A stretch of 58,406 nucleotides of DNA from an uncultured Candidatus Saccharibacteria bacterium. Its GTDB lineage: Bacteria; Patescibacteriota; Minisyncoccia; 2-02-FULL-40-12; GWA2-44-9. Under the pieces are notes generated by a model. The model was given only the letters and a program-made list of their open reading frames with translations. It ran no database searches and was not told where the DNA came from. Below, piece after piece: positions 20,581 to 58,406 of the stretch. The stretch spans positions 1 through 58,406 of the forward strand of contig CAZENF010000004.1 in the NCBI GenBank assembly GCA_964513645.1. The letters run 5' to 3'. A program made the translations under genes and the position numbers. The stretch's first letter is position 1. Each line of letters opens with the position of its first letter.

Positions 20581-20656
20581 ATCCCGTACGAAGTAGCCTC
20601 GCCGAGGTCCCCTTAAGGACTCGTGCCAAAGGCACGAGCGAGACTTCGTACGGGAT
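20581..20656. repeat. TIR hairpin element, copy 1 (76 nt)
   Basis: ATCCCGTACGAAGT (20581-20594) and ACTTCGTACGGGAT (20643-20656) form a perfect 14-bp inverted repeat. The interior folds as a CTCGC/GCGAG stem plus two hairpins. Confidence 0.85.
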
Positions 20657-21649: not shown

Positions 21650-22270
21650 TTAACCGGTGAGGCCAGTAACGAGGTGGAATATCCAAAATATAAGCGGGGA
21701 AGCGAAGAACATAAAGACTATCAAAAACACCGGAAATATGAATAAGGTATTTTTATATAAAAAAGTTTTGAAGGAGTCGAACTTGGGAGGCAAAAGAGTC
21801 ATCAACAGCCAGTGCCCATCAAGCGGCGGAACTGGAAACATATTAAATACCGCCAAGGAAAGATTTAAAAGAACTATCCTTGAAAAAAGGTCAACAACAG
21901 AAGCGGAGCCGATAAAGCCTTCGGCAAAACGCAAGGTAAACCCGAAAAGAAGCGCTAAAACGAGATTTGAAGCAGGGCCGGCAAGGGCAACCTTAACAGG
22001 ACCATACTTTCTGTCATCGAGATTGTTAGGATTATAAGGAACCGGTTTGGCATAACCAAAAGCAAAACCTGTGGCCATATAAAGAATGAACGGCAAAATT
22101 ATCGAACCAAAAAGATCCAGGTGTTTTAAGGGATTCAAGCTCAAACGGCCAAGGTCTTTGGCCGTTGTATCACCTAAAGAATTTGCCATTAGGCCGTGAG
22201 AAACCTCGTGTATTGTAACAGAATATAGAATGACTATTATGTAGAAAATAGGTAGTATTAAAGTCTCCAT
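21650..22270 (-). CDS. Site-2 protease family (M50) membrane metalloprotease
   Basis: HEVSHG plus NMFPVPPLDG in a polytopic protein. I place the start at METLIL (ATG 22270). The ORF-track extension to 22423 reads through repeat copy 2. Confidence 0.8.
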   Translation of the reverse strand: METLILPIFYIIVILYSVTIHEVSHGLMANSLGDTTAKDLGRLSLNPLKHLDLFGSIILPFILYMATGFAFGYAKPVPYNPNNLDDRKYGPVKVALAGPASNLVLALLFGFTLRFAEGFIGSASVVDLFSRIVLLNLSLAVFNMFPVPPLDGHWLLMTLLPPKFDSFKTFLYKNTLFIFPVFLIVFMFFASPLIFWIFHLVTGLTG

Positions 22271-22344
22271 CCTGTACGAAGTAGCCTCCGCCGAGGTCTC
22301 TAAAGAGACTCGCGACTTCGTCGCGAGCGAGACTTCGTACGGGA
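22269..22344. repeat. TIR hairpin element, copy 2 (76 nt)
   Basis: Arms are ATCCTGTACGAAGT and ACTTCGTACGGGA. It has the same architecture as copy 1, with compensatory changes in both internal hairpins. Confidence 0.85.
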
Positions 22345-22351
22345 CCAGTAC

Positions 22352-22380: not shown

Positions 22381-22432
22381 GTAAAACACAAATTAAATAC
22401 GTATTGACTAACATCGACCCCAAATATTTCTA

Positions 22433-39185: not shown

Positions 39186-39827
39186 ATGAATTCAGGTAAA
39201 ACCAAGTCCCCATTTCACCACATAACAAACTGCCTGAACCCCAAGTATCATCCGGCTGAACCAAATTTTGAGTCCATGGTCATGCTCCAGGATTGGTTTA
39301 AAAATAATGGGTATAGTCATCACGAATATGAGTCAAATAAACTTATTCGTGTCGCCCAGCTTTGCGAATTTGGCGGTGTAATGTGGAAAACTCCGTTCGG
39401 ATATGGTGATACTGAAAAAGCCTGCGGCACATGGGCCTTATGCCCGGTTTGCCACGAAGTTATGATGTGCGGATATAATGATAACACGGGTCTTGGACCA
39501 AAACGTTGTGATAAATGCCGATGCCTGCTTCGCCTGCAGGACTATTTTCAACCCATATATAAAGGCGGCTTTGGCTGCCCAGAAGAAAATTACTGCCGTG
39601 AACACAAAATGATCCACCACCCTGAAACAATGGTCAAGATTAGAAATGCCGCTATGCTCGCCTTAGCCAGAGAAAAATCAATGAATGTAGATGTCTTAGT
39701 TAAAGAATTACAAAGAGCACTTCCAAATGTATTAAAAGATAACTTACTTTCAATGATCTGGTCAGAAAGAGACCGTTGGGGATTAGATTTTGATAAAGAT
39801 TGGAAAATATTTAAATTAGATAACTAA
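39186..39827 (+). CDS. Hypothetical Cys-rich 213-aa protein
   Basis: CPVCHEVMMCGYNDNTGLGPKRCDKCRC plus further Cys/His residues. I recognise no family. Confidence 0.6.
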   Translation: MNSGKTKSPFHHITNCLNPKYHPAEPNFESMVMLQDWFKNNGYSHHEYESNKLIRVAQLCEFGGVMWKTPFGYGDTEKACGTWALCPVCHEVMMCGYNDNTGLGPKRCDKCRCLLRLQDYFQPIYKGGFGCPEENYCREHKMIHHPETMVKIRNAAMLALAREKSMNVDVLVKELQRALPNVLKDNLLSMIWSERDRWGLDFDKDWKIFKLDN

Positions 39828-39871: not shown

Positions 39872-41893
39872 TTACTTGACCAGAAATTTTGCGATAAGGA
39901 GAGCGACAATGTTAGCTACCTTGATCATGGGATTGATAGCAGGTCCGGCGGTGTCCTTGTAAGGATCCCCTACCGTGTCTCCTGTCACTGCTGCTTTATG
40001 GGCGTCGGAACCTTTGCCGCCATAATTACCCTCTTCGATATATTTCTTGGCATTGTCCCAAGCCGCACCACCAGAAGTCATCGAAATAGCTACGAATAAT
40101 CCGGTAATTATCACTCCCACCAAAAGTCCGCCCAACGCCTGTGGTCCGAGCAGAAATCCGATAGCTATCGGGAATACGATCGGAATAAGCGCCGGCAGTA
40201 TCATTTCTTTTATCGCAGCCCGGGTAACAATATCAACCGCGTTGCCGTAATCCGGCTTTTCCATGCCCTGCATAATGCCAGGCATTTCTTTGAACTGTCT
40301 CCTGACCTCATCCACAACCGCCGCACCGGTCCGGGCAACCGCTTCCATCGCCATTGAACCGAAAAGATACGGCATCATTCCGCCCACAAACAATCCTATC
40401 AAAACTCGAGGATCCTGAAGTTCAAAAAATAACTGACTACCCAAGCTTGAAAGTTCTTGAATATAAGCGCTAAACAAAACCATCGCCGCAAGTCCGGCTG
40501 AAGCGATAGCGTAACCTTTGGTCACCGCTTTGGTCGTATTACCAACCGCATCCAAAGCATCGGTCACCTCTCTGACAGAGTCAGGCAAGTGTGACATTTC
40601 AGCGATCCCGCCCGCGTTATCAGTTATCGGACCGAAGGCATCGATGGCAACAACAATTCCGGCCAGTGAAAGCATGCTCATCGTCGCTAAAGCAATTCCA
40701 TAAAGACCGATGACATAAAAAGCAAGATAAATACCCAGACAAATGACAACAATCGGCAAAGCAGTGGCCTGCATCGAGACGGCCAAACCGGCAATAATAT
40801 TTGTGCCATGGCCGGTGGTAGAAGCTTTGGCGATAGTCTGGACCGGACGGAATTTTTTAGAAGTATAAAAATCAGTTATCAGAACCATTAGCGCGGTTAC
40901 ACCGATACCGATCATCATCGCCCAGAAAACATCCATCCGGTTAACTAAGCCGTTAGATAATTTATCGAGGTCACGGATATAGGTGAGCTTGTTTACCATG
41001 TAATAGAAAATGCCGGCCAGAACAACGGCTGTCACGGCCAGACCTTTATAAAGAGCGTTCATTATTCCGCCCATAATACCCTCGCCCAGACGAACAAACA
41101 AAGAACCGATTATCGAAGCGACCACGGCCGAAGCGCCGATTATCAAAGGCAAAATGGTATAGCCCGGTTCGGAAGGAATAAGTAAACTGCCGAGCAGCAT
41201 AACAGAAACAGCAGAAACAACATAAGTTTCAAAAAGATCGGCCGCCATACCCGCATCATCACCAACTTCATCCCCAACCAAATCAGCAATGACTGCGGGA
41301 TTTCTCGGATCATCTTCAGGAATTCCGGCTTCAATCTTACCAACAAGATCCGCTCCGACATCGGCACCCTTGGTGAAAATTCCACCGCCCAAACGGGCAA
41401 AAACAGAAATAAGAGAAGAACCAAAACCCAAACCAATGAGGGCTTTGACATCTTTGGTTACCCAGTAGAAGAATGTGACCGAGATGAGGGCGAGACCGAC
41501 GACGAAGAAACCTGTCACCGCGCCGCCTTTATAAGCCAGGCCAAAAGCTTCAGCGAGACCTTTTTTAGCTTCCTCGGCAACTCGGACGTTCGCCCGAACC
41601 GCAACCATCATTCCGACATAACCGGCTGCAGCTGAAGCGATCGCACCCAATAAAAATCCAATGGCAATGGTTTTGCCAAGCCCGACAAACAATATTGCCG
41701 CAACCACAATACCAACGGCAAAAACGGTCGTGTTCTGACGTTTAAGATATGCTTCGGCGCCTTCCTGTATCGCCTTCTGTATCGACTGCATTTTTTCATC
41801 GCCGGTCGATTTATTTAATATCTGCCAGATCAGGAAAGCTCCGTAGGCAAGTGATGCCACGCCCGCTCCGATCGGCAACCAGAGAATATTCAT
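39872..41893 (-). CDS. hppA: Membrane-bound proton/sodium-translocating pyrophosphatase
   Basis: [20 protein letters not shown] and [19 protein letters not shown] motifs. Start placed at MNILW (ATG 41893). The ORF-track start at 41908 lies inside repeat copy 3. Confidence 0.93.
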
Positions 41894-42010
41894 CCCGTAC
41901 GAACTCATATGCTACGCATATTATGGTCAAACGTTTGACAATAATATAACCAGCGATGAGCTAAATTAATATTATTTTTGCAAACCCGTCAGGGTGAGTT
42001 CGTACGGGAT
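41892..42010. repeat. TIR hairpin element, copy 3 (119 nt)
   Basis: Arms are ATCCCGTACGAACT and AGTTCGTACGGGAT. The interior contains GGTCAAACGTTTGACA. Confidence 0.8.
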
Positions 42011-42151
42011 TCACCCCATTCGAACCACATCAGCTCACAGGCAGCTTCCTTTCATCAGATCTGCTAATTAGATTGGTAACTTAAAAACAACAAAATAAAG
42101 GATACTATAATTATCCCGGGGATTCAACTGTTAAGCCCTGTGGGGTCTTTG

Positions 42152-43225
42152 TTAATCTTTGTCTTCTGAATGTGGACCCTCGACTAAATGCGTGTCTATT
42201 TCTAGAGATTGCCCCGTAATTTTAAATACGTCTTTATCTACCTTTTTAAACTCTTTGGCTGCATTATTGTAAAAATTTACAGTTGTACCAAGGTGTCCTC
42301 CTAGTTTTTTAAAATAATCATCATAACTTTGGAGGTGTTTACCTAAGGATTCTACATTTTTTCGTATTTCTTTTGCAGACTCTTCAATTTGCAATGCTCG
42401 CAAGCCCTGAAGTACGGTTTGCAAATATGCCAGAAAGGAGGTTGGTGAAACTATTATTACATGTTTTTTAAATGCATAATCGACAAGATTCTCCTTAGCG
42501 GCTCCTGTTTGAGTTGTCAATAAATCATAATAAATTGCTTCGTGCGGAATAAACATGAAGGCGAAATCCATAGTCCCCTCGTCAGTTTTTACATACTTTG
42601 ATGTTTCATCGATTCTCTTTTTGAGATCTTCTCTGAATACTTTTTCAAGACGTTCCCTCTCCAACGGATCAGTTTCATCACTTGCTCGATTATAATTTTC
42701 GAGAGAATACTTTGAATCTATAGGAATAATCTTGTCTTTAACAAATACAACCGCATCAACAATAGTTCCATCTTTGAAAGAATACTGCATCTGATAGTTT
42801 TCCGGCGGAAGAACGTTGTCTAGAATAGTTTTCAAATAGTATTCGCCGAGAATACCTCTCCGCTTGGGGTTCTCAAGCATTTTTTGAAATCCTTGTATCT
42901 GGTTTGCAAAACCAGACATCTGTTTTCCTGCTTCTTCAACCCGTGTCACCTTTTCTGTAATGTTGGTTAATTCCCTAATAAATTGATCGCCGAGCTTTTT
43001 AGATTCCGAGAGTTGGTTGCGAATGGAATCAGTAGAAACTCGGTTTGCTTCACTAAGCTTTAAATCTAATACCTTTGCCATATCAGACAGCCTCTGATCA
43101 AACAGCAGTATCGATTGATCGGGTTCTTGTTTGGGCTTTGGTTTTAATTGAATCCAAATAATCAAAAAAATACCCGCTAAAACTAGGATTCCAAATATAG
43201 AAATTAAAATTATCGGCAATTCCAT
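42152..43225 (-). CDS. rmuC: DNA recombination protein RmuC
   Basis: 357 aa with an N-terminal TM segment, a coiled-coil and a RmuC-like C-terminal region. Confidence 0.8.
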   Translation of the reverse strand: MELPIILISIFGILVLAGIFLIIWIQLKPKPKQEPDQSILLFDQRLSDMAKVLDLKLSEANRVSTDSIRNQLSESKKLGDQFIRELTNITEKVTRVEEAGKQMSGFANQIQGFQKMLENPKRRGILGEYYLKTILDNVLPPENYQMQYSFKDGTIVDAVVFVKDKIIPIDSKYSLENYNRASDETDPLERERLEKVFREDLKKRIDETSKYVKTDEGTMDFAFMFIPHEAIYYDLLTTQTGAAKENLVDYAFKKHVIIVSPTSFLAYLQTVLQGLRALQIEESAKEIRKNVESLGKHLQSYDDYFKKLGGHLGTTVNFYNNAAKEFKKVDKDVFKITGQSLEIDTHLVEGPHSEDKD

Positions 43226-43227
43226 AA

Positions 43228-43467
43228 CTATTTTTTATTATTTTCGGAGTTTAAATATTCCGAAACAAGCTGAGATAGTTTTTCGTGATGTTCCTTCTGG
43301 CTTTTAATTGTTGTAGCCATTTCATCTAAACGCTTATGTAGTGCCAAGTAATCATTGTTACCATTCTGCATATGCCGGCGGGATTTAAGCATCAGATAAA
43401 TATTGATGCCGAGCATGCTCAAAACCGCCAAACTAACCAATGATATTAGAACATAAAAAGGATTCAT
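43228..43467 (-). CDS. Small membrane protein (79 aa)
   Basis: One N-terminal TM helix. It lies 2 nt upstream of rmuC. Confidence 0.6.
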   Translation of the reverse strand: MNPFYVLISLVSLAVLSMLGINIYLMLKSRRHMQNGNNDYLALHKRLDEMATTIKSQKEHHEKLSQLVSEYLNSENNKK

Positions 43468-43577
43468 CCCGTACGAAGTAGCCCTTGCAGGGTCCGAAGG
43501 TCAAATGATTGACATTCATATCCGGGCAAGAACCCCATTATTATCCCGACTGAAGTTTTTACTACTTCGTACGGGAT
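43466..43577. repeat. TIR hairpin element, copy 4 (112 nt)
   Basis: Arms are ATCCCGTACGAAGT and ACTTCGTACGGGAT. There is an extra internal TIR-like ATCCCGACTGAAGT at 43543-43556, and the interior contains GGTCAAATGATTGACA. Confidence 0.85.
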
Positions 43578-43594
43578 TTACTTCCATTAGAGTA

Positions 43595-43623
43595 AATCTA
43601 TCATTAAAAAAACATGTTTTCAA
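43595..43623 (-). promoter_or_regulatory. Promoter candidate TTGAAA-17-TAGATT just upstream of copy 4
   Basis: rc 43618-43623 is TTGAAA and rc 43595-43600 is TAGATT. Confidence 0.45.
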
Positions 43624-43626
43624 TTA

Positions 43627-43648
43627 AAAACGGCTTATGCCGTTTTTT
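43627..43648. terminator. Terminator after the tRNA locus
   Basis: AAAAACGGCTTATGCCGTTTTT. Confidence 0.7.
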
Positions 43649-43654
43649 AATTTG

Positions 43655-43924
43655 TGGACCCTACTGAGCTCGAACCGGTTACCTCCACATTGTCCCGATA
43701 AATCATGATGGGCCGCAAGTGGACCGTAGGAGACTCGAACTCCTGACCTCCTCATTGCAAATGAGGCGCTCTACCAACTGAGCTAACGGCCCATCATGAT
43801 TTATCAAGGATCCTCGACTTCATTACCCTAATTTTAAATTGTAAGTCGGGACAAATGTGGCGCTCCTCGCCCGACTGAACAATGTCAGTCGTTCGGGCGG
43901 GTACCAACTAAGCTAAGAGCCACC
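43655..43924 (-). other. Outer tRNA-Ala-like shell, disrupted or intron-like, enclosing tRNA-Ala
   Basis: rc 43902-43924 corresponds to tRNA positions 1-21. Next is a 36-nt hairpin (43866-43901). Then GAGC-G-CCACA-TTTG (43852-43865) corresponds to positions 22-35. A 159-nt insert follows (43693-43851). Finally CAATGTGGAGGTAACCGGTTCGAGCTCAGTAGGGTCCA (43655-43692) corresponds to positions 36-73. Confidence 0.55.
43720..43792 (-). tRNA. tRNA-Ala (UGC)
   Basis: The rc reads GGGCCGT-TA-GCTC-AGTTGGTA-GAGC-G-CCTCA-TTTGCAA-TGAGG-AGGTC-AGGAG-TTCGAGT-CTCCT-ACGGTCC-A. The G3:U70 pair is present. Confidence 0.9.
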
Positions 43925-45430: not shown

Positions 45431-45502
45431 GGGTGCGTAGTTCAGTGGTAGAACGCGTTCCTGATAAGAACGAGGCCGTAGGTCCGATTCCTACCGCACC
45501 CA
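45431..45502 (+). tRNA. tRNA-Ile (GAU)
   Basis: GGGTGCG-TA-GTTC-AGTGGTA-GAAC-G-CGTTC-CTGATAA-GAACG-AGGCC-GTAGG-TCCGATT-CCTAC-CGCACCC-A. The T-loop reads TCC rather than TTC. Confidence 0.85.
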
Positions 45503-45518
45503 CAAAAAAGGAGCTTTT

Positions 45519-50795: not shown

Positions 50796-50854
50796 CCCCG
50801 TACCAAGCCCGCCCCTTTTCTTAATGGCGGCCAGCGGAAAAGCTTGGTGTGGGG
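50796..50854. repeat. Diverged TIR-family-like hairpin (59 nt)
   Basis: Arms CCCCGTACCAAGC and GCTTGGTGTGGGG form 13 bp, including two G.T pairs. The interior contains CCGCC..GGCGG. Confidence 0.5.
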
Positions 50855-50867
50855 TGGATGTGTTGGC

Positions 50868-57738: not shown

Positions 57739-57974
57739 AAGTTTCTCAACTTTATATAGCTTCCCAGTATTGCCTTTTGACAGAAATTTTTATTCGAGCT
57801 GTCATAGAATTCCGATTTAGCCTTCGGATCAGGCATCAGAATTAATTCCGATATCGACTTCATTTTTTTGAAAGTGTTTAGAGTATAGACGTGAAAAAGT
57901 AGAAAATACTTCTTCCCGTTTTTCGCCTCCACACTTTAAATCCTTTCGTGCATCCAAGAAAAATCTTGAATAGA

Positions 57975-58406
57975 AAGGAGGTGATCCAAGAGCAGCTTCC
58001 GCTACCCTTGCCTTGTTACGACTTAGTTCCTGTCATCGAGCTTACCGTGTCCCTACATATAAAATAGGTCTTCAGGTATTCCCGACTCCCTTAACTTGAC
58101 GGGCAGTGAGTCCAAAATTCGAGAACGTATTCACCGCTGCGTTCTGATCAGCGATTACTAGCAATTCCGGCTTCAAGAAGGCAAGTTGCAGCCTTCTATC
58201 CGAACTGAGGGTGCTTTTGATGGGATTAGCTCCACCTCGCGGTTTGGCAACCCATTGTGACACCCATTGTATCATGTGTGTAGCCCAGGACATCAAAGGG
58301 CCACGCTGACTTGACGTCATCCCCACCTTCCTCCTTCTTACGAAGGCAGTCTCGTCTGACACGTATAACAGACGATAGGGGTTGCGCTCGTTAATCCACT
58401 TAAGGA
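57975..58406 (-). rRNA. rrs: 16S rRNA, 3' ~430 nt; the 5' part runs off the window end
   Basis: The rc ends ...AAGTCGTAACAAGGCAAGGGTAGCGGAAGCTGCTCTTGGATCACCTCCTTT. Also present are CGGTGAATACGTTC and the GGGGATGACGTCAAGTCAGC block. Confidence 0.95.

Follow-up and report, generated by a model that had tools for sequence, protein, structure and literature searches.

The palindromic repeat that adjoins the start codon of hppA, the membrane pyrophosphatase gene, is probably one member of a large non-autonomous, hairpin-forming (MITE-like) mobile family of CPR/Patescibacteria whose niche is the start codon. It is the third of four copies in the window, by which we mean the whole 58,406-nt stretch of DNA analyzed here. 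The gene is not broken by the insertion: its real start is the ATG abutting the element. A literature search that included the arm sequence itself found no description of such an element.

Copy 3 and the true start of hppA

The features of the hppA locus are as follows.

41892..42010, minus strand: copy 3, a 119-nt palindromic element of the long class and the CCCT(N)ACGGGT group, adjoining the hppA start
41995..42010, minus strand: 5' arm of copy 3, in gene sense AUCCCGUACGAACUCA, 16 nt, 100% complementary to the 3' arm
41892..41907, minus strand: 3' arm of copy 3, in gene sense UGAGUUCGUACGGGAU, its last AU being the first two bases of the hppA AUG
41918..41947: internal 30-nt near-perfect palindrome, a small internal hairpin with core GTCAAACGTTTGAC at 41926-41939
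42009..42014, minus strand: GTGAAT, upstream copy of the hppA start region (family rule, ATGNA-T-element-ATGNA)
39872..41893, minus strand: hppA (PF03030) with corrected start, 673 aa
41891..41893, minus strand: true hppA start codon, ATG (protein MNILW...), placed by the N-termini of 119 orthologues
41906..41908, minus strand: false ORF-track start codon (MSSYGM), at the inner edge of the 3' arm

Copy 3 is closed by a fully complementary 16-nt inverted repeat, ATCCCGTACGAACTCA (41892-41907) and TGAGTTCGTACGGGAT (41995-42010), with 87 nt between the arms. On the gene (minus) strand the junction with hppA reads ...CATATGAGTTCGTACGGG-ATG-AAT-ATT, and the A and T of the ATG (41893-41891) are the last two bases of the repeat arm, as the original prediction stated. 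That prediction took the contact between element and gene for a chance feature of this locus; it characterizes the entire family and is accompanied by a duplicated start codon on the element's far side. The GTGAAT upstream of the element may be either a decayed ATGAA plus T or an ancestral GTG start, and two HppA orthologues (P0015 and P0030) do start with GTG.

The same prediction described a perfect palindrome in the interior of copy 3 that recurs in copy 4, and both were found, the latter as GGTCAAATGATTGACA. Its further proposal that copies 3 and 4 define a second subfamily is weak: the two have a common length class and a GTCAA..TTGAC hairpin, but they are just 57% identical (80% for copies 1 and 2, 47-55% between classes). 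The relatives of copy 3 elsewhere do not keep GTCAAACGTTTGAC; what they have in common is CCCT(N)ACGGGT instead.

It had also been considered that copy 3 might be missing from independent assemblies, and there is a general risk with repeats in metagenome assemblies; contigs of both runs examined here tend to break close to element copies. Yet contigs from two independent metagenome samples (X1 and X2) span copy 3 with 0 differences, and no joint skips the element. With as many as 2 mismatches permitted, the window contains the 14-mer of the arm 4 times versus 0.19 times expected, a count reached by none of 100 shuffles; the RNA folds at -50.3 kcal/mol (z = -4.06 versus shuffles), folding z-scores being about -4; and hundreds of related copies occur in independent genomes. 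The chance that copy 3 is a fortuitous palindrome or an assembly artefact is thus practically negligible.

HppA matches PF03030, and among the 8000 relatives found the best, from Ca. Yanofskybacteria, is 83% identical; the related loci listed for HppA were for the most part distant orthologues from outside the CPR. The N-terminus is MNI, MNT, or MSI in 86 of 119 orthologues. The distance from the Met to a conserved ASLAYGA motif is 12 residues in 85 of the 103 orthologues in which this motif can be located, versus 17 residues in the ORF-track HppA. The true start is therefore the ATG at 41893, which bears out the MNILW start that had been proposed, and MSSYG is a false 5-residue extension read from the repeat arm. 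That HppA really begins with MSSYGM, for which there is an in-frame ATG at 41908, is very improbable: besides the motif spacing, which matches the MNILW start, the five extra codons lie within a 16-bp perfect stem. A search of the orthologues for an MSSYGM-type N-terminus, which the original prediction had named as the result that would speak against it, turned up one similar prefix, the predicted ...TSYGM of P0105. Because the ATG of that gene bears the same kind of element, which encodes the prefix, this is the same artefact and no refutation; P0117, 93% identical to P0105, has neither element nor prefix.

The remaining copies lie in the same 58 kb, and all four are in sense on the minus strand.

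20581..20656, minus strand: copy 1, 76 nt, GC-rich short class, between rpsG and fusA
22269..22345, minus strand: copy 2, 77 nt, GC-rich short class, abutting the ATG (22270) of an M50-peptidase-like gene
43466..43577, minus strand: copy 4, 112 nt, abutting the ATG (43467) of a 79-aa membrane ORF upstream of rmuC
50796..50865, minus strand: possible fifth, degenerate relative, CCCCGTACCAAGC...GCTTGGTGTGGGG, about 24 nt upstream of the gene for a transketolase N-half

Three of the four end as ...CGTAC(G/A)GG-ATG on a gene start. Copy 1 stands 43 nt from the fusA ATG, and so is off the start codon, and it has no flanking repeat. The upstream ATG has decayed in all four (GTG, GTA, none, and none).

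A family of elements at start codons

The family was surveyed with two pattern scans over 185,579 species genomes, in which the arm sequence was set by the search pattern, so that the apparent conservation of the arms is partly ascertainment. There are at least 224 CPR-like copies, and among those listed 189 (84%) directly abut an ORF (at least 30-40 aa), which starts with ATG in 186 cases and with GTG in 3. An ATG stands exactly 6 nt before the 5' arm in at least 137 copies, and identical 5-mers (ATGNA repeated upstream) flank both sides of 133 of the 189 abutting copies listed. Against the observed share of 84%, start codons account for 4% of ATNNA and 24% of ATGNA among tolerated sites in the window. 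The arm motif also flagged MAGs labelled Nanoarchaeota and Gammaproteobacteria, which are probably mis-binned or mislabelled.

Members range from 60 to 122 nt, with closing stems of 12-25 bp, some carrying CGCGGACGC/GCGTCCGCG extensions, and with termini 5'-T-CCCGT...ACGGG-A-3' that are mostly extended to AT...AT. The middle is AU-rich or GC-rich, varying by lineage; many subfamilies have an ACGGG(A/G) motif near the 5' arm, and a small hairpin is stacked on the 3' arm. Where the arms are of the variant type CCCGTTAGAA/TTCTAACGGG, both sides change together.

The flanks define what is duplicated. Position 5 covaries between left and right and is therefore part of the duplication; left position 6 is T or C regardless of the codon, pairs with A or G on the right, and therefore belongs to the element. 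The duplication is TGNA (4 bp), or ATGNA (5 bp) if the A is counted, and copies off start codons have TNNA-type repeats (TCAA, TTAA, TAAA, CTAG), as expected for target-site duplications. A duplication of 2 bp, with an AT...AT element, was ruled out by the covariation at position 5 (AGT/AGN), and one of 6 bp by a match at position 6 that is at chance level only (35-38%).

Copies cluster by genome and not by gene, with at least 8 in each of several single MAGs, and tandem and nested copies exist. The genes that carry them are core genes, including those for ribosomal proteins, release factor, and RRF as well as dnaA, murG/J, pgk, and metK. Hot-spot genes were considered and rejected, as the gene families hit repeatedly are about as many as independent insertion into a restricted pool of ATGRA starts predicts. 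Among the matches listed, none is intragenic, and the element occurs on a single viral contig.

Comparing orthologous loci for presence or absence, as had been proposed for hppA, gave a patchy picture. The hppA start has an element of the long type in the window, L001, L205, and L314, one of a short GC-rich type with the different arms CCCGTTAGAA/TTCTAACGGG in L317 and L318, and none in L119, L120, and L319, and these types do not match the HppA protein tree. L001 is filled where L320 and L322 are empty at 93% protein identity, a comparison between species and not within one population; the -10 box before the old ATG is conserved between them. At prfB, rplI, recR, murG, murJ, and frr, different subfamilies sit at the same nucleotide. 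In orthologous pairs with the same subfamily, interiors are 82-93% identical versus 41-51% at third codon positions, a difference that, together with the mostly intact upstream ATGNA, would fit purifying selection, and with it a function, as well as recent insertion. No transposase or autonomous partner was found in the window or beside lone arms in about 300 loci, and the scans of the genome collections covered arms up to 600 nt apart. As candidate ends of an autonomous element, these lone arms came out either as small copies that have diverged or as coincidental matches within coding sequence.

Mechanism and comparison with known systems

In the properties by which MITEs are recognized, the family has terminal inverted repeats (perfect over 16 nt in copy 3), target-site duplications in the 133 abutting copies noted above (those of the window copies have decayed), small non-coding multicopy members, and presence/absence polymorphism, here between species. 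Comparison of the flanks shows that the element sits directly after the first bases of a coding sequence and that TGNA (ATGNA, counting the A) is duplicated. The upstream duplicate keeps the old ATG, plus the promoter if the gene is leaderless, while the terminal A or AT of the element and the duplicated TGNA rebuild an intact ATG-NAN before the untouched ORF. We propose that the element would then be co-transcribed, forming a stable hairpin in which the A and U of the AUG pair, and that translation would begin at the downstream AUG. We lean toward a genuine preference for A|TGRA targets at gene starts, perhaps aided by the open promoter complex that leaderless genes offer, with insertions elsewhere being purged as well; purging alone seems the less likely cause. 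A transposase acting on symmetric terminal repeats leaves unexplained both the strong orientation bias described below and the G at target position 3, so that strong selection or a strand-specific mechanism must be added; the one-sided orientation may reflect an effect at the RNA level.

Several known repeats resemble these elements. The Correia elements of Neisseria are MITEs with a TA duplication and repeats of about 26 bp that occupy varied intergenic positions in either orientation; they are co-transcribed with neighboring genes, and their hairpins are RNase III substrates that alter the expression of adjacent genes. Like the CPR family they are short (about 60-150 nt), non-coding, and multicopy, with terminal inverted repeats, a short duplication, and long hairpins. 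However, the CPR family, with termini TCCCGT..ACGGGA and hosts among CPR bacteria, sits on the start codon in about 84% of the copies listed, duplicates (A)TGNA, has one orientation, and rebuilds the ATG with its own terminal base or bases. Rickettsia palindromic elements are likewise palindromic selfish repeats of reduced genomes that insert into genes without destroying them, but those keep the reading frame and are translated, giving the protein extra peptide segments. The CPR elements have lengths that are not multiples of 3 and many upstream-frame stops, the upstream frame ending in or just past the element in 76 of 76 cases tested, and they lie outside the final ORF. Mycobacterial interspersed repetitive units (MIRUs), tandem direct repeats that carry small ORFs between genes in operons, also have ends that overlap start and stop codons and preserve gene boundaries; unlike the CPR elements, they have no closing inverted repeat and no start-codon duplication.

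Bypass elements, such as the T4 gene 60 gap and the byps of Magnusiomyces mitochondria, are hairpin inserts that are also flanked by matching short sequences. They lie inside ORFs between matched sense codons, and byps are regarded as mobile. The CPR element differs in lying at codon 1-2, followed by a normal ATG and a complete ORF, so that bypass is not required. REP/BIME sequences and integron attC sites share with the family imperfect palindromes with conserved ends and structure, a variable center, and a fixed orientation to genes, and they act as single-stranded hairpins handled by dedicated enzymes (RAYT and IntI). The CPR family, in contrast, has no GTAG-type REP head and no R''/R' GTTRRRY cores, its termini being CCCGT/ACGGG rather than RYYYAAC/GTTRRRY, and it lies at the gene start and not the end, with a target duplication; neither a RAYT nor an integrase is adjacent. 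A Pfam scan of the 10 unassigned window ORFs gave no integrase.

Possible roles of the element in RNA

Several observations bear on a possible role of the element in RNA. Among the matches listed, the interior has the same orientation relative to the gene in 171 cases and the opposite one in 2, and the sense strand folds slightly better than the antisense strand (P = 0.009). Few of the copies off start codons could be placed in a subfamily from which their orientation to neighboring genes might be read. The internal hairpins contain compensatory changes, with loops such as AAAAAAUAAU fixed while the stems covary. In predicted folds the closing stem takes up the A and U of the AUG in base pairs, and a stem of some -20 kcal/mol reaching to the AUG should hinder initiation. 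The commonest position of a -10-like hexamer is -12 relative to the upstream ATG, SD-like sequences are nearly absent, and about 40% of the upstream ATG copies among the matches listed lie 6-7 nt past a -10 box, a spacing that is, judged by sequence, the signature of a leaderless start. SD sequences are missing from most genes of the window organism, so short-leader initiation is normal for it. An internal promoter in the element (TTGACC plus a -10 box) was rejected since the spacings do not fit, as was a GGAGG upstream of the L001 element as an SD sequence, comparison with L320 showing it to be the spacer that separates a conserved TGnTATTTT -10 box from the leaderless start. No usable RNA runs were found for the Rifle groundwater, rplB, and Hainich groundwater S10-operon loci, and the runs behind the window itself contain DNA only.

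The mobile element may have been domesticated as a cis-regulatory module, a reading compatible with a mobile origin, in which translation initiation or mRNA stability in many housekeeping genes is set by a 5' hairpin; the hairpin could either sequester the AUG until a signal opens it or act as a cap that shields the 5' end from 5'-dependent RNases. We hold this to be possible but doubtful. The strict orientation, the better folding of the sense strand, the covarying stems with their fixed loops, the pairing of the AUG, the core genes concerned, and interiors far better conserved than synonymous sites all speak for it. Yet interiors are wholly different between lineages (60 to 122 nt, AU-rich to GC-rich) and contain no universal core resembling a ligand pocket, copies cluster by genome and not by gene, and close relatives are without the element. 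Searches against Rfam 15 gave no gathering-score match in the window, nothing at E ≤ 1 for six loci drawn from different subfamilies, and none better than chance at E ≤ 10 on 41850-43650. It is decidedly unlikely that the element is instead removed from the RNA without re-ligation, by analogy with the RNase III-excised intervening sequences of rRNA: the closing stem would be cut, the 5' piece and loop discarded, and a short-leader mRNA with a free AUG left behind, which would account for the restriction of tolerated elements to the 5' edge of ORFs. The closing stems of 20-25 bp in many subfamilies, including those with the extensions mentioned above, are consistent with such cutting, as are the position of the element at the extreme 5' end of predicted leaderless transcripts and the normality of short-leader initiation in genes without SD. 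RNase III, however, cuts within stems and not at their base, so that a leader of about 10 nt would remain, and this reading does not account for the lower frequency of insertions a few nucleotides upstream of the ATG.

The duplicated AUG could itself be functional, with ribosomes loading on a 5'-terminal AUG and translating a short ORF in the element (M-X-P-V-R-...), thereby melting the stem, and then re-initiating at the authentic AUG or sliding or hopping over the hairpin, a take-off/landing arrangement like that of T4 gene 60. In 70% of copies the upstream ATGNA remains intact, even in pairs with saturated synonymous sites; the upstream ATG lies at the transcription start predicted from the -10 box; the hairpin is flanked by matching 5-mers; and in twelve of the short ORFs the stop overlaps the real start as ATGA. 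But the upstream ATG is no better conserved than neighboring positions, is intact in 79% of copies with a -10 box versus 69% without, which we judge to be no excess, and has decayed in every window copy. The stops of the short ORFs are scattered from -67 to +10, and none of the copies listed lies inside an ORF, where true bypass elements could also be found. This reading is a long shot. It is unlikely, if somewhat less so, that in broader terms the duplicated start codon and hairpin form a widespread CPR translation-initiation device, in which the 5'-terminal AUG of a leaderless mRNA would be loaded and the authentic AUG reached only after the hairpin is melted by short-ORF translation, cut off, or hopped over, or that the element locates start codons through the initiating machinery (the open promoter complex at leaderless genes), which it would sense. 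The start-codon mobile element remains the reading we prefer.

Implications for CPR genomes and translation

Among the abutting copies listed, 37 of 189 (about one in five) offer an in-frame upstream start, and longest-ORF callers therefore produce false N-termini. In the window this has happened at two of the three abutting copies: MSSYG was added at copy 3, and the M50-peptidase-like gene of the ORF track runs through copy 2 for 51 false codons, up to the TTG at 22423. As several per cent of the genes in each genome are affected, CPR proteomes carry a systematic error. The arm motif, in turn, is usable as a marker of CPR DNA.

Landing on start codons and paying with the donated A or AT of a new ATG is an unusual solution for life in a tiny, gene-dense genome, and one must ask what could allow a start codon to be targeted. 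Current rules of initiation are hard to square with a stable stem that reaches the AUG of essential genes in organisms poor in SD sequences and with many leaderless genes. Should the element turn out to be an initiation device or to sense the initiating machinery, it would mean that genes are controlled, or transposons targeted, in a new way. The stem at the AUG gives a concrete and testable starting point for studying how an uncultivated radiation translates its genes.

The hppA start codon

Copy 3, the 119-nt hairpin-forming element at 41892-42010, reads on the gene (-) strand as ...GGGGTGAAT-CCCGTACGAACTCA...TGAGTTCGTACGGG-ATG-AAT-ATT, and its 16-nt arms (terminal inverted repeats) include the AT of the hppA ATG. 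The original prediction held that hppA starts at 41893 and that the MSSYGM N-terminus of the longest-ORF call is encoded by the arm, and comparison with relatives upholds this. The closest proteins, from Candidatus Yanofskybacteria and other Parcubacteria, are up to 83% identical. Among HppA relatives, 86 of 119 begin with MNI, MNT or MSI, and the conserved ASLAYGA motif is 12 residues from the methionine in 85 of the 103 in which it could be located. The motif lies 17 residues into the ORF-track protein, whose five surplus codons (AUG-AGU-UCG-UAC-GGG) are supplied by the 3' arm of copy 3. Motif distance and relatives' N-termini thus identify ATG 41893 as the real start. An MSSYGM-type start is not conserved in orthologues: the sole look-alike, the predicted N-terminus ...TSYGM of the relative P0105, comes from a contig with the same kind of element on the ATG, so that this prefix has the same artefactual origin and is no sign of conservation. 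Both the initial observation and its main interpretation are right.

Elements and related features in the window
20581-20656, - strand: copy 1, between rpsG and fusA, not on a start
22269-22345, - strand: copy 2, ending ...CTTCGTACAGG-ATG-GAG, start of an M50-peptidase-like gene
39186-39827, + strand: Cys/His-rich ORF, 213 aa, between hppA and pth
41908, - strand: ORF-track start ATG of hppA (membrane pyrophosphatase, PF03030)
41892-41907 and 41995-42010: arms of copy 3, a perfect 16-nt inverted pair with 87 nt between (repeat finder)
43466-43577, - strand: copy 4, ending ...CTTCGTACGGG-ATG-AAT, start of a membrane ORF (79 aa) that precedes rmuC
50796-50865: GC-rich palindrome with related arms CCCCGTACCAAGC...GCTTGGTGTGGGG, possibly a decayed family member

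All four copies lie in the sense of - strand genes, and through copy 2 the ORF track adds 51 false codons to the M50-peptidase-like gene. The 14-nt arm core, with up to two mismatches, has 4 occurrences in the window where 0.19 would be expected, and none of 100 shuffles had as many. Copy 3 is genuine sequence rather than an assembly artefact, because contigs of two rock-metagenome samples cover it without differences and none skips it; absence from independent assemblies, which would have spoken for an artefact, was thus not found. As RNA it is predicted to fold into a multibranched structure with a 17-bp closing stem (-50.3 kcal/mol, z = -4.06), and the predicted fold of copy 4 is similar (z = -4.43). 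The palindrome reported in copy 3, GTCAAACGTTTGAC, is present as the core of a near-perfect 30-nt palindrome (41918-41947), and copy 4 has the variant described. The proposed second subfamily is only weakly supported, since copies 3 and 4 share 57% identity and the relatives of copy 3 do not keep the palindrome.

HppA orthologues are variously named in the sources as Na+-translocating, K+-stimulated or K+-insensitive H+ pumps. The window protein (39872-41893) has GNTTKA, not GNTTAA, a mark of K+-independent H+-PPases, and for this reason "H+-PPase" may be the better name.

Genomic surroundings

The rmuC-hppA-pth synteny is kept in relatives. The 213-aa Cys/His-rich ORF, which has no Pfam match, is missing from that position in some of them. 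Within 42152-43467, a separate 79-aa ORF stands ahead of rmuC; its N-terminus, MNPFYVLISLVSLAVL, resembles MVNPVYIIISVVSLAVL, the membrane segment at the N-terminus of RmuC in a relative (L120) where RmuC is a single piece, and this may be a partial duplication or a split. The palindrome at 50796-50865 precedes the first half of a split transketolase by about 24 nt.

The 23S (1-2899) and 16S (57974-58406) rRNA genes share a strand but are separated by about 55 kb, which holds the ribosomal-protein operons and about 60 genes. For the 23S gene, 2899 nt correspond to model positions 1-2621, which makes an insertion or intron of about 280 nt likely. The usual place of tRNA-Ala(UGC) and tRNA-Ile(GAU) is the rRNA spacer; here they are isolated on opposite strands (43719-43792 and 45431-45503), tRNA-Ala just upstream of copy 4.

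A family of elements on start codons

We scanned 185,579 species, one genome each, for CCCGTACGAA-N40-70-TTCGTACGGG, then with spacer N80-110; all survey counts are among the matches listed. Named matches are nearly all from Patescibacteria (CPR): Nomura-, Yanofsky-, Zambryski-, Wildermuth-, Moran- and Doudnabacteria, Paceibacterota and Saccharibacteria-labelled MAGs. The few matches from Streptomyces, Achromobacter and genomes of that kind are flanked by GC-rich sequence and lack the CPR-type architecture. MAGs labelled Nanoarchaeota and Gammaproteobacteria (L248, L268) carry typical copies on gene starts, and the first 30 residues of an L248 protein are identical to those of a protein from a CPR MAG (L271); both are likely mis-binned or mislabelled. 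Many "uncultured Candidatus Saccharibacteria" labels may be generic. Only one viral contig carries the element. We found no Rfam match and no description of the element or its arm sequence in the literature, although such absence is no proof of novelty.

An ORF of at least 30-40 aa directly follows the element in 189 of 224 CPR-like copies (84%) among the matches listed, starting with ATG in 186 and GTG in 3; several of the other copies are followed by a very small ORF (25-38 aa). The abutted genes are ordinary core genes (ribosomal proteins, release/recycling factors, dnaA, dnaG, recR, murG, murJ, pgk, metK, greA, tRNA synthetases). Abutment of a start codon is therefore the rule of the family and not local to hppA.

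The start codon is also repeated. Among these 189 listed copies, 137 have an ATG exactly 6 nt before the 5' arm, and the 5-mer ATGNA is the same on both sides in 133, with a further 8 identical in a 7-nt register, which gives the layout ATGNA-T-[CCCGT...ACGGG]-ATGNA-N. Left and right agree at flank positions 2-5 in 85-92% of copies, with covariation at position 5 (left AGT with right AGN). At position 6 they match in 38%, the chance level, and the left base is T (or C), pairing with the A (or G) after ...CGGG. Copies off start codons are flanked by repeats such as TCAA, TTAA, TAAA or CTAG, and position 1 is often unequal between sides. The simplest reading is element termini T...A with a 4-bp duplication, TGNA; a 5-bp duplication is possible. 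Under either, the A of the functional ATG is supplied or mirrored by the last base of the element. The upstream repeats have decayed in the window to GTGAAT (copy 3) and GTAAAT (copy 4). The GTG upstream of copy 3 may be the ancestral hppA start, since two HppA orthologues start with GTG.

Shine-Dalgarno-like sequences are nearly absent before the left ATG. A -10-like TANNNT peaks at -12 from it and occurs at -14 to -12 in 38-48% of the listed copies versus 20% of element-free window genes; this spacing suggests that many target genes are leaderless, with transcription from the A of the upstream ATG. The window's 16S rRNA ends in a canonical anti-Shine-Dalgarno sequence, GAUCACCUCCUUUCU, yet most window genes lack a Shine-Dalgarno sequence. 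In several operon-first window genes a -10 box precedes the ATG by 6-7 nt, so that these genes appear leaderless.

Mobility and possible selection

Orthologous hppA loci carry a long type, a short type or no element, as the comparison called for by the original prediction now documents. The long type, with CCCT(N)ACGGGT past the 5' arm, sits on hppA in the window, L001, L205 and L314. The closest orthologues (L317 and L318, 82-83% identical) have a short GC-rich type whose arms, CCCGTTAGAA/TTCTAACGGG, differ from those of the window by mutually compensating changes, and L119, L120 and L319 have none; this distribution disagrees with the protein tree. Between P0105 (L001, filled) and P0117 (L320/L322, empty), proteins 93% identical, the empty site is TGGTATTTT-AGCGGG-ATGAATACA, an extended -10 box, 6 nt and ATG, and the filled one TGATATTTT-GGAGGTC-ATGAA-T[element]-ATGAATACA. 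L320 also has a perfect 22-bp hairpin with a T-run behind it (1400-1450, ATACAATGGGGGTCTTTGTATA...TATACAAAGACCCCCATTGTATTTT), some 50 nt ahead of the leaderless hppA promoter; this hairpin has no relation to the element and is likely the terminator of the upstream ORF.

Tandem and nested copies exist. In L099 (~144-400) and L046 (4446-4652), two elements with unlike arms (TACG and TTAG types) stand in tandem on one gene start, separated by ATGAAT or ATGAGTTTAAT alone; a duplicated start region can apparently be struck again. In the Taylorbacteria-labelled L120 (627-785), a composite upstream of rmuC has an outer pair of arms, CCTGAACGAAGT/ACTTCGTACGGG, with a further small element, itself complete (CCCCGAACGAAAC...GTTTCGTACGGGG), nested between them; TCAAT repeats border the composite, which lies away from start codons. 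A search of the window ORFs and of the surroundings of lone arms in the collected loci revealed neither a transposase nor a longer element bounded by these termini.

How far insertion accounts for the pattern can be judged from the window, which has 455 intergenic ATNNA sites, 67 of them ATGNA, and 21 ATGNA start codons. If insertions are tolerated only at intergenic and start-codon sites, 4% would fall on starts without a G preference and 24% if ATGNA were absolute, against 84% among the matches listed. Some 90% of these have RAN as codon 2, so the preference for A|TGRA is real; by itself this preference falls short of the observed excess. In prfB, rplI, recR, murG, murJ and frr, one and the same nucleotide is taken by different subfamilies in different genomes, about as often as expected if elements insert independently into a limited set of ATGRA starts. 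The polarity is not accounted for by a transposase acting on symmetric ends: gene-oriented interiors match in the same orientation in 171 listed pairs and in the opposite one in 2.

Interiors are specific to each genome or lineage (60 to 122 nt, AU-rich to GC-rich), with two recurrent features: an ACGGG(A/G) motif shortly past the 5' arm, and a small hairpin that stacks on the 3' arm, whose stems covary and some of whose loops are fixed. In same-subfamily orthologous pairs interiors are 82-93% identical versus 41-51% at third codon positions, and the upstream ATGNA is mostly intact. Recent, very precise re-insertion could produce this; so could purifying selection, which would imply a function. 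Folding is slightly more stable for the sense than for the antisense strand (mean 0.83 kcal/mol, 106 vs 78, p = 0.009), which weakly supports selection on the transcript. A predicted stem this strong that closes on the AUG should impede initiation.

The larger result is a family of MITE-like hairpin elements, spread across the CPR, which sit on start codons, duplicating and rebuilding them. Both the mobile nature of the family and its effect on gene annotation are well supported.
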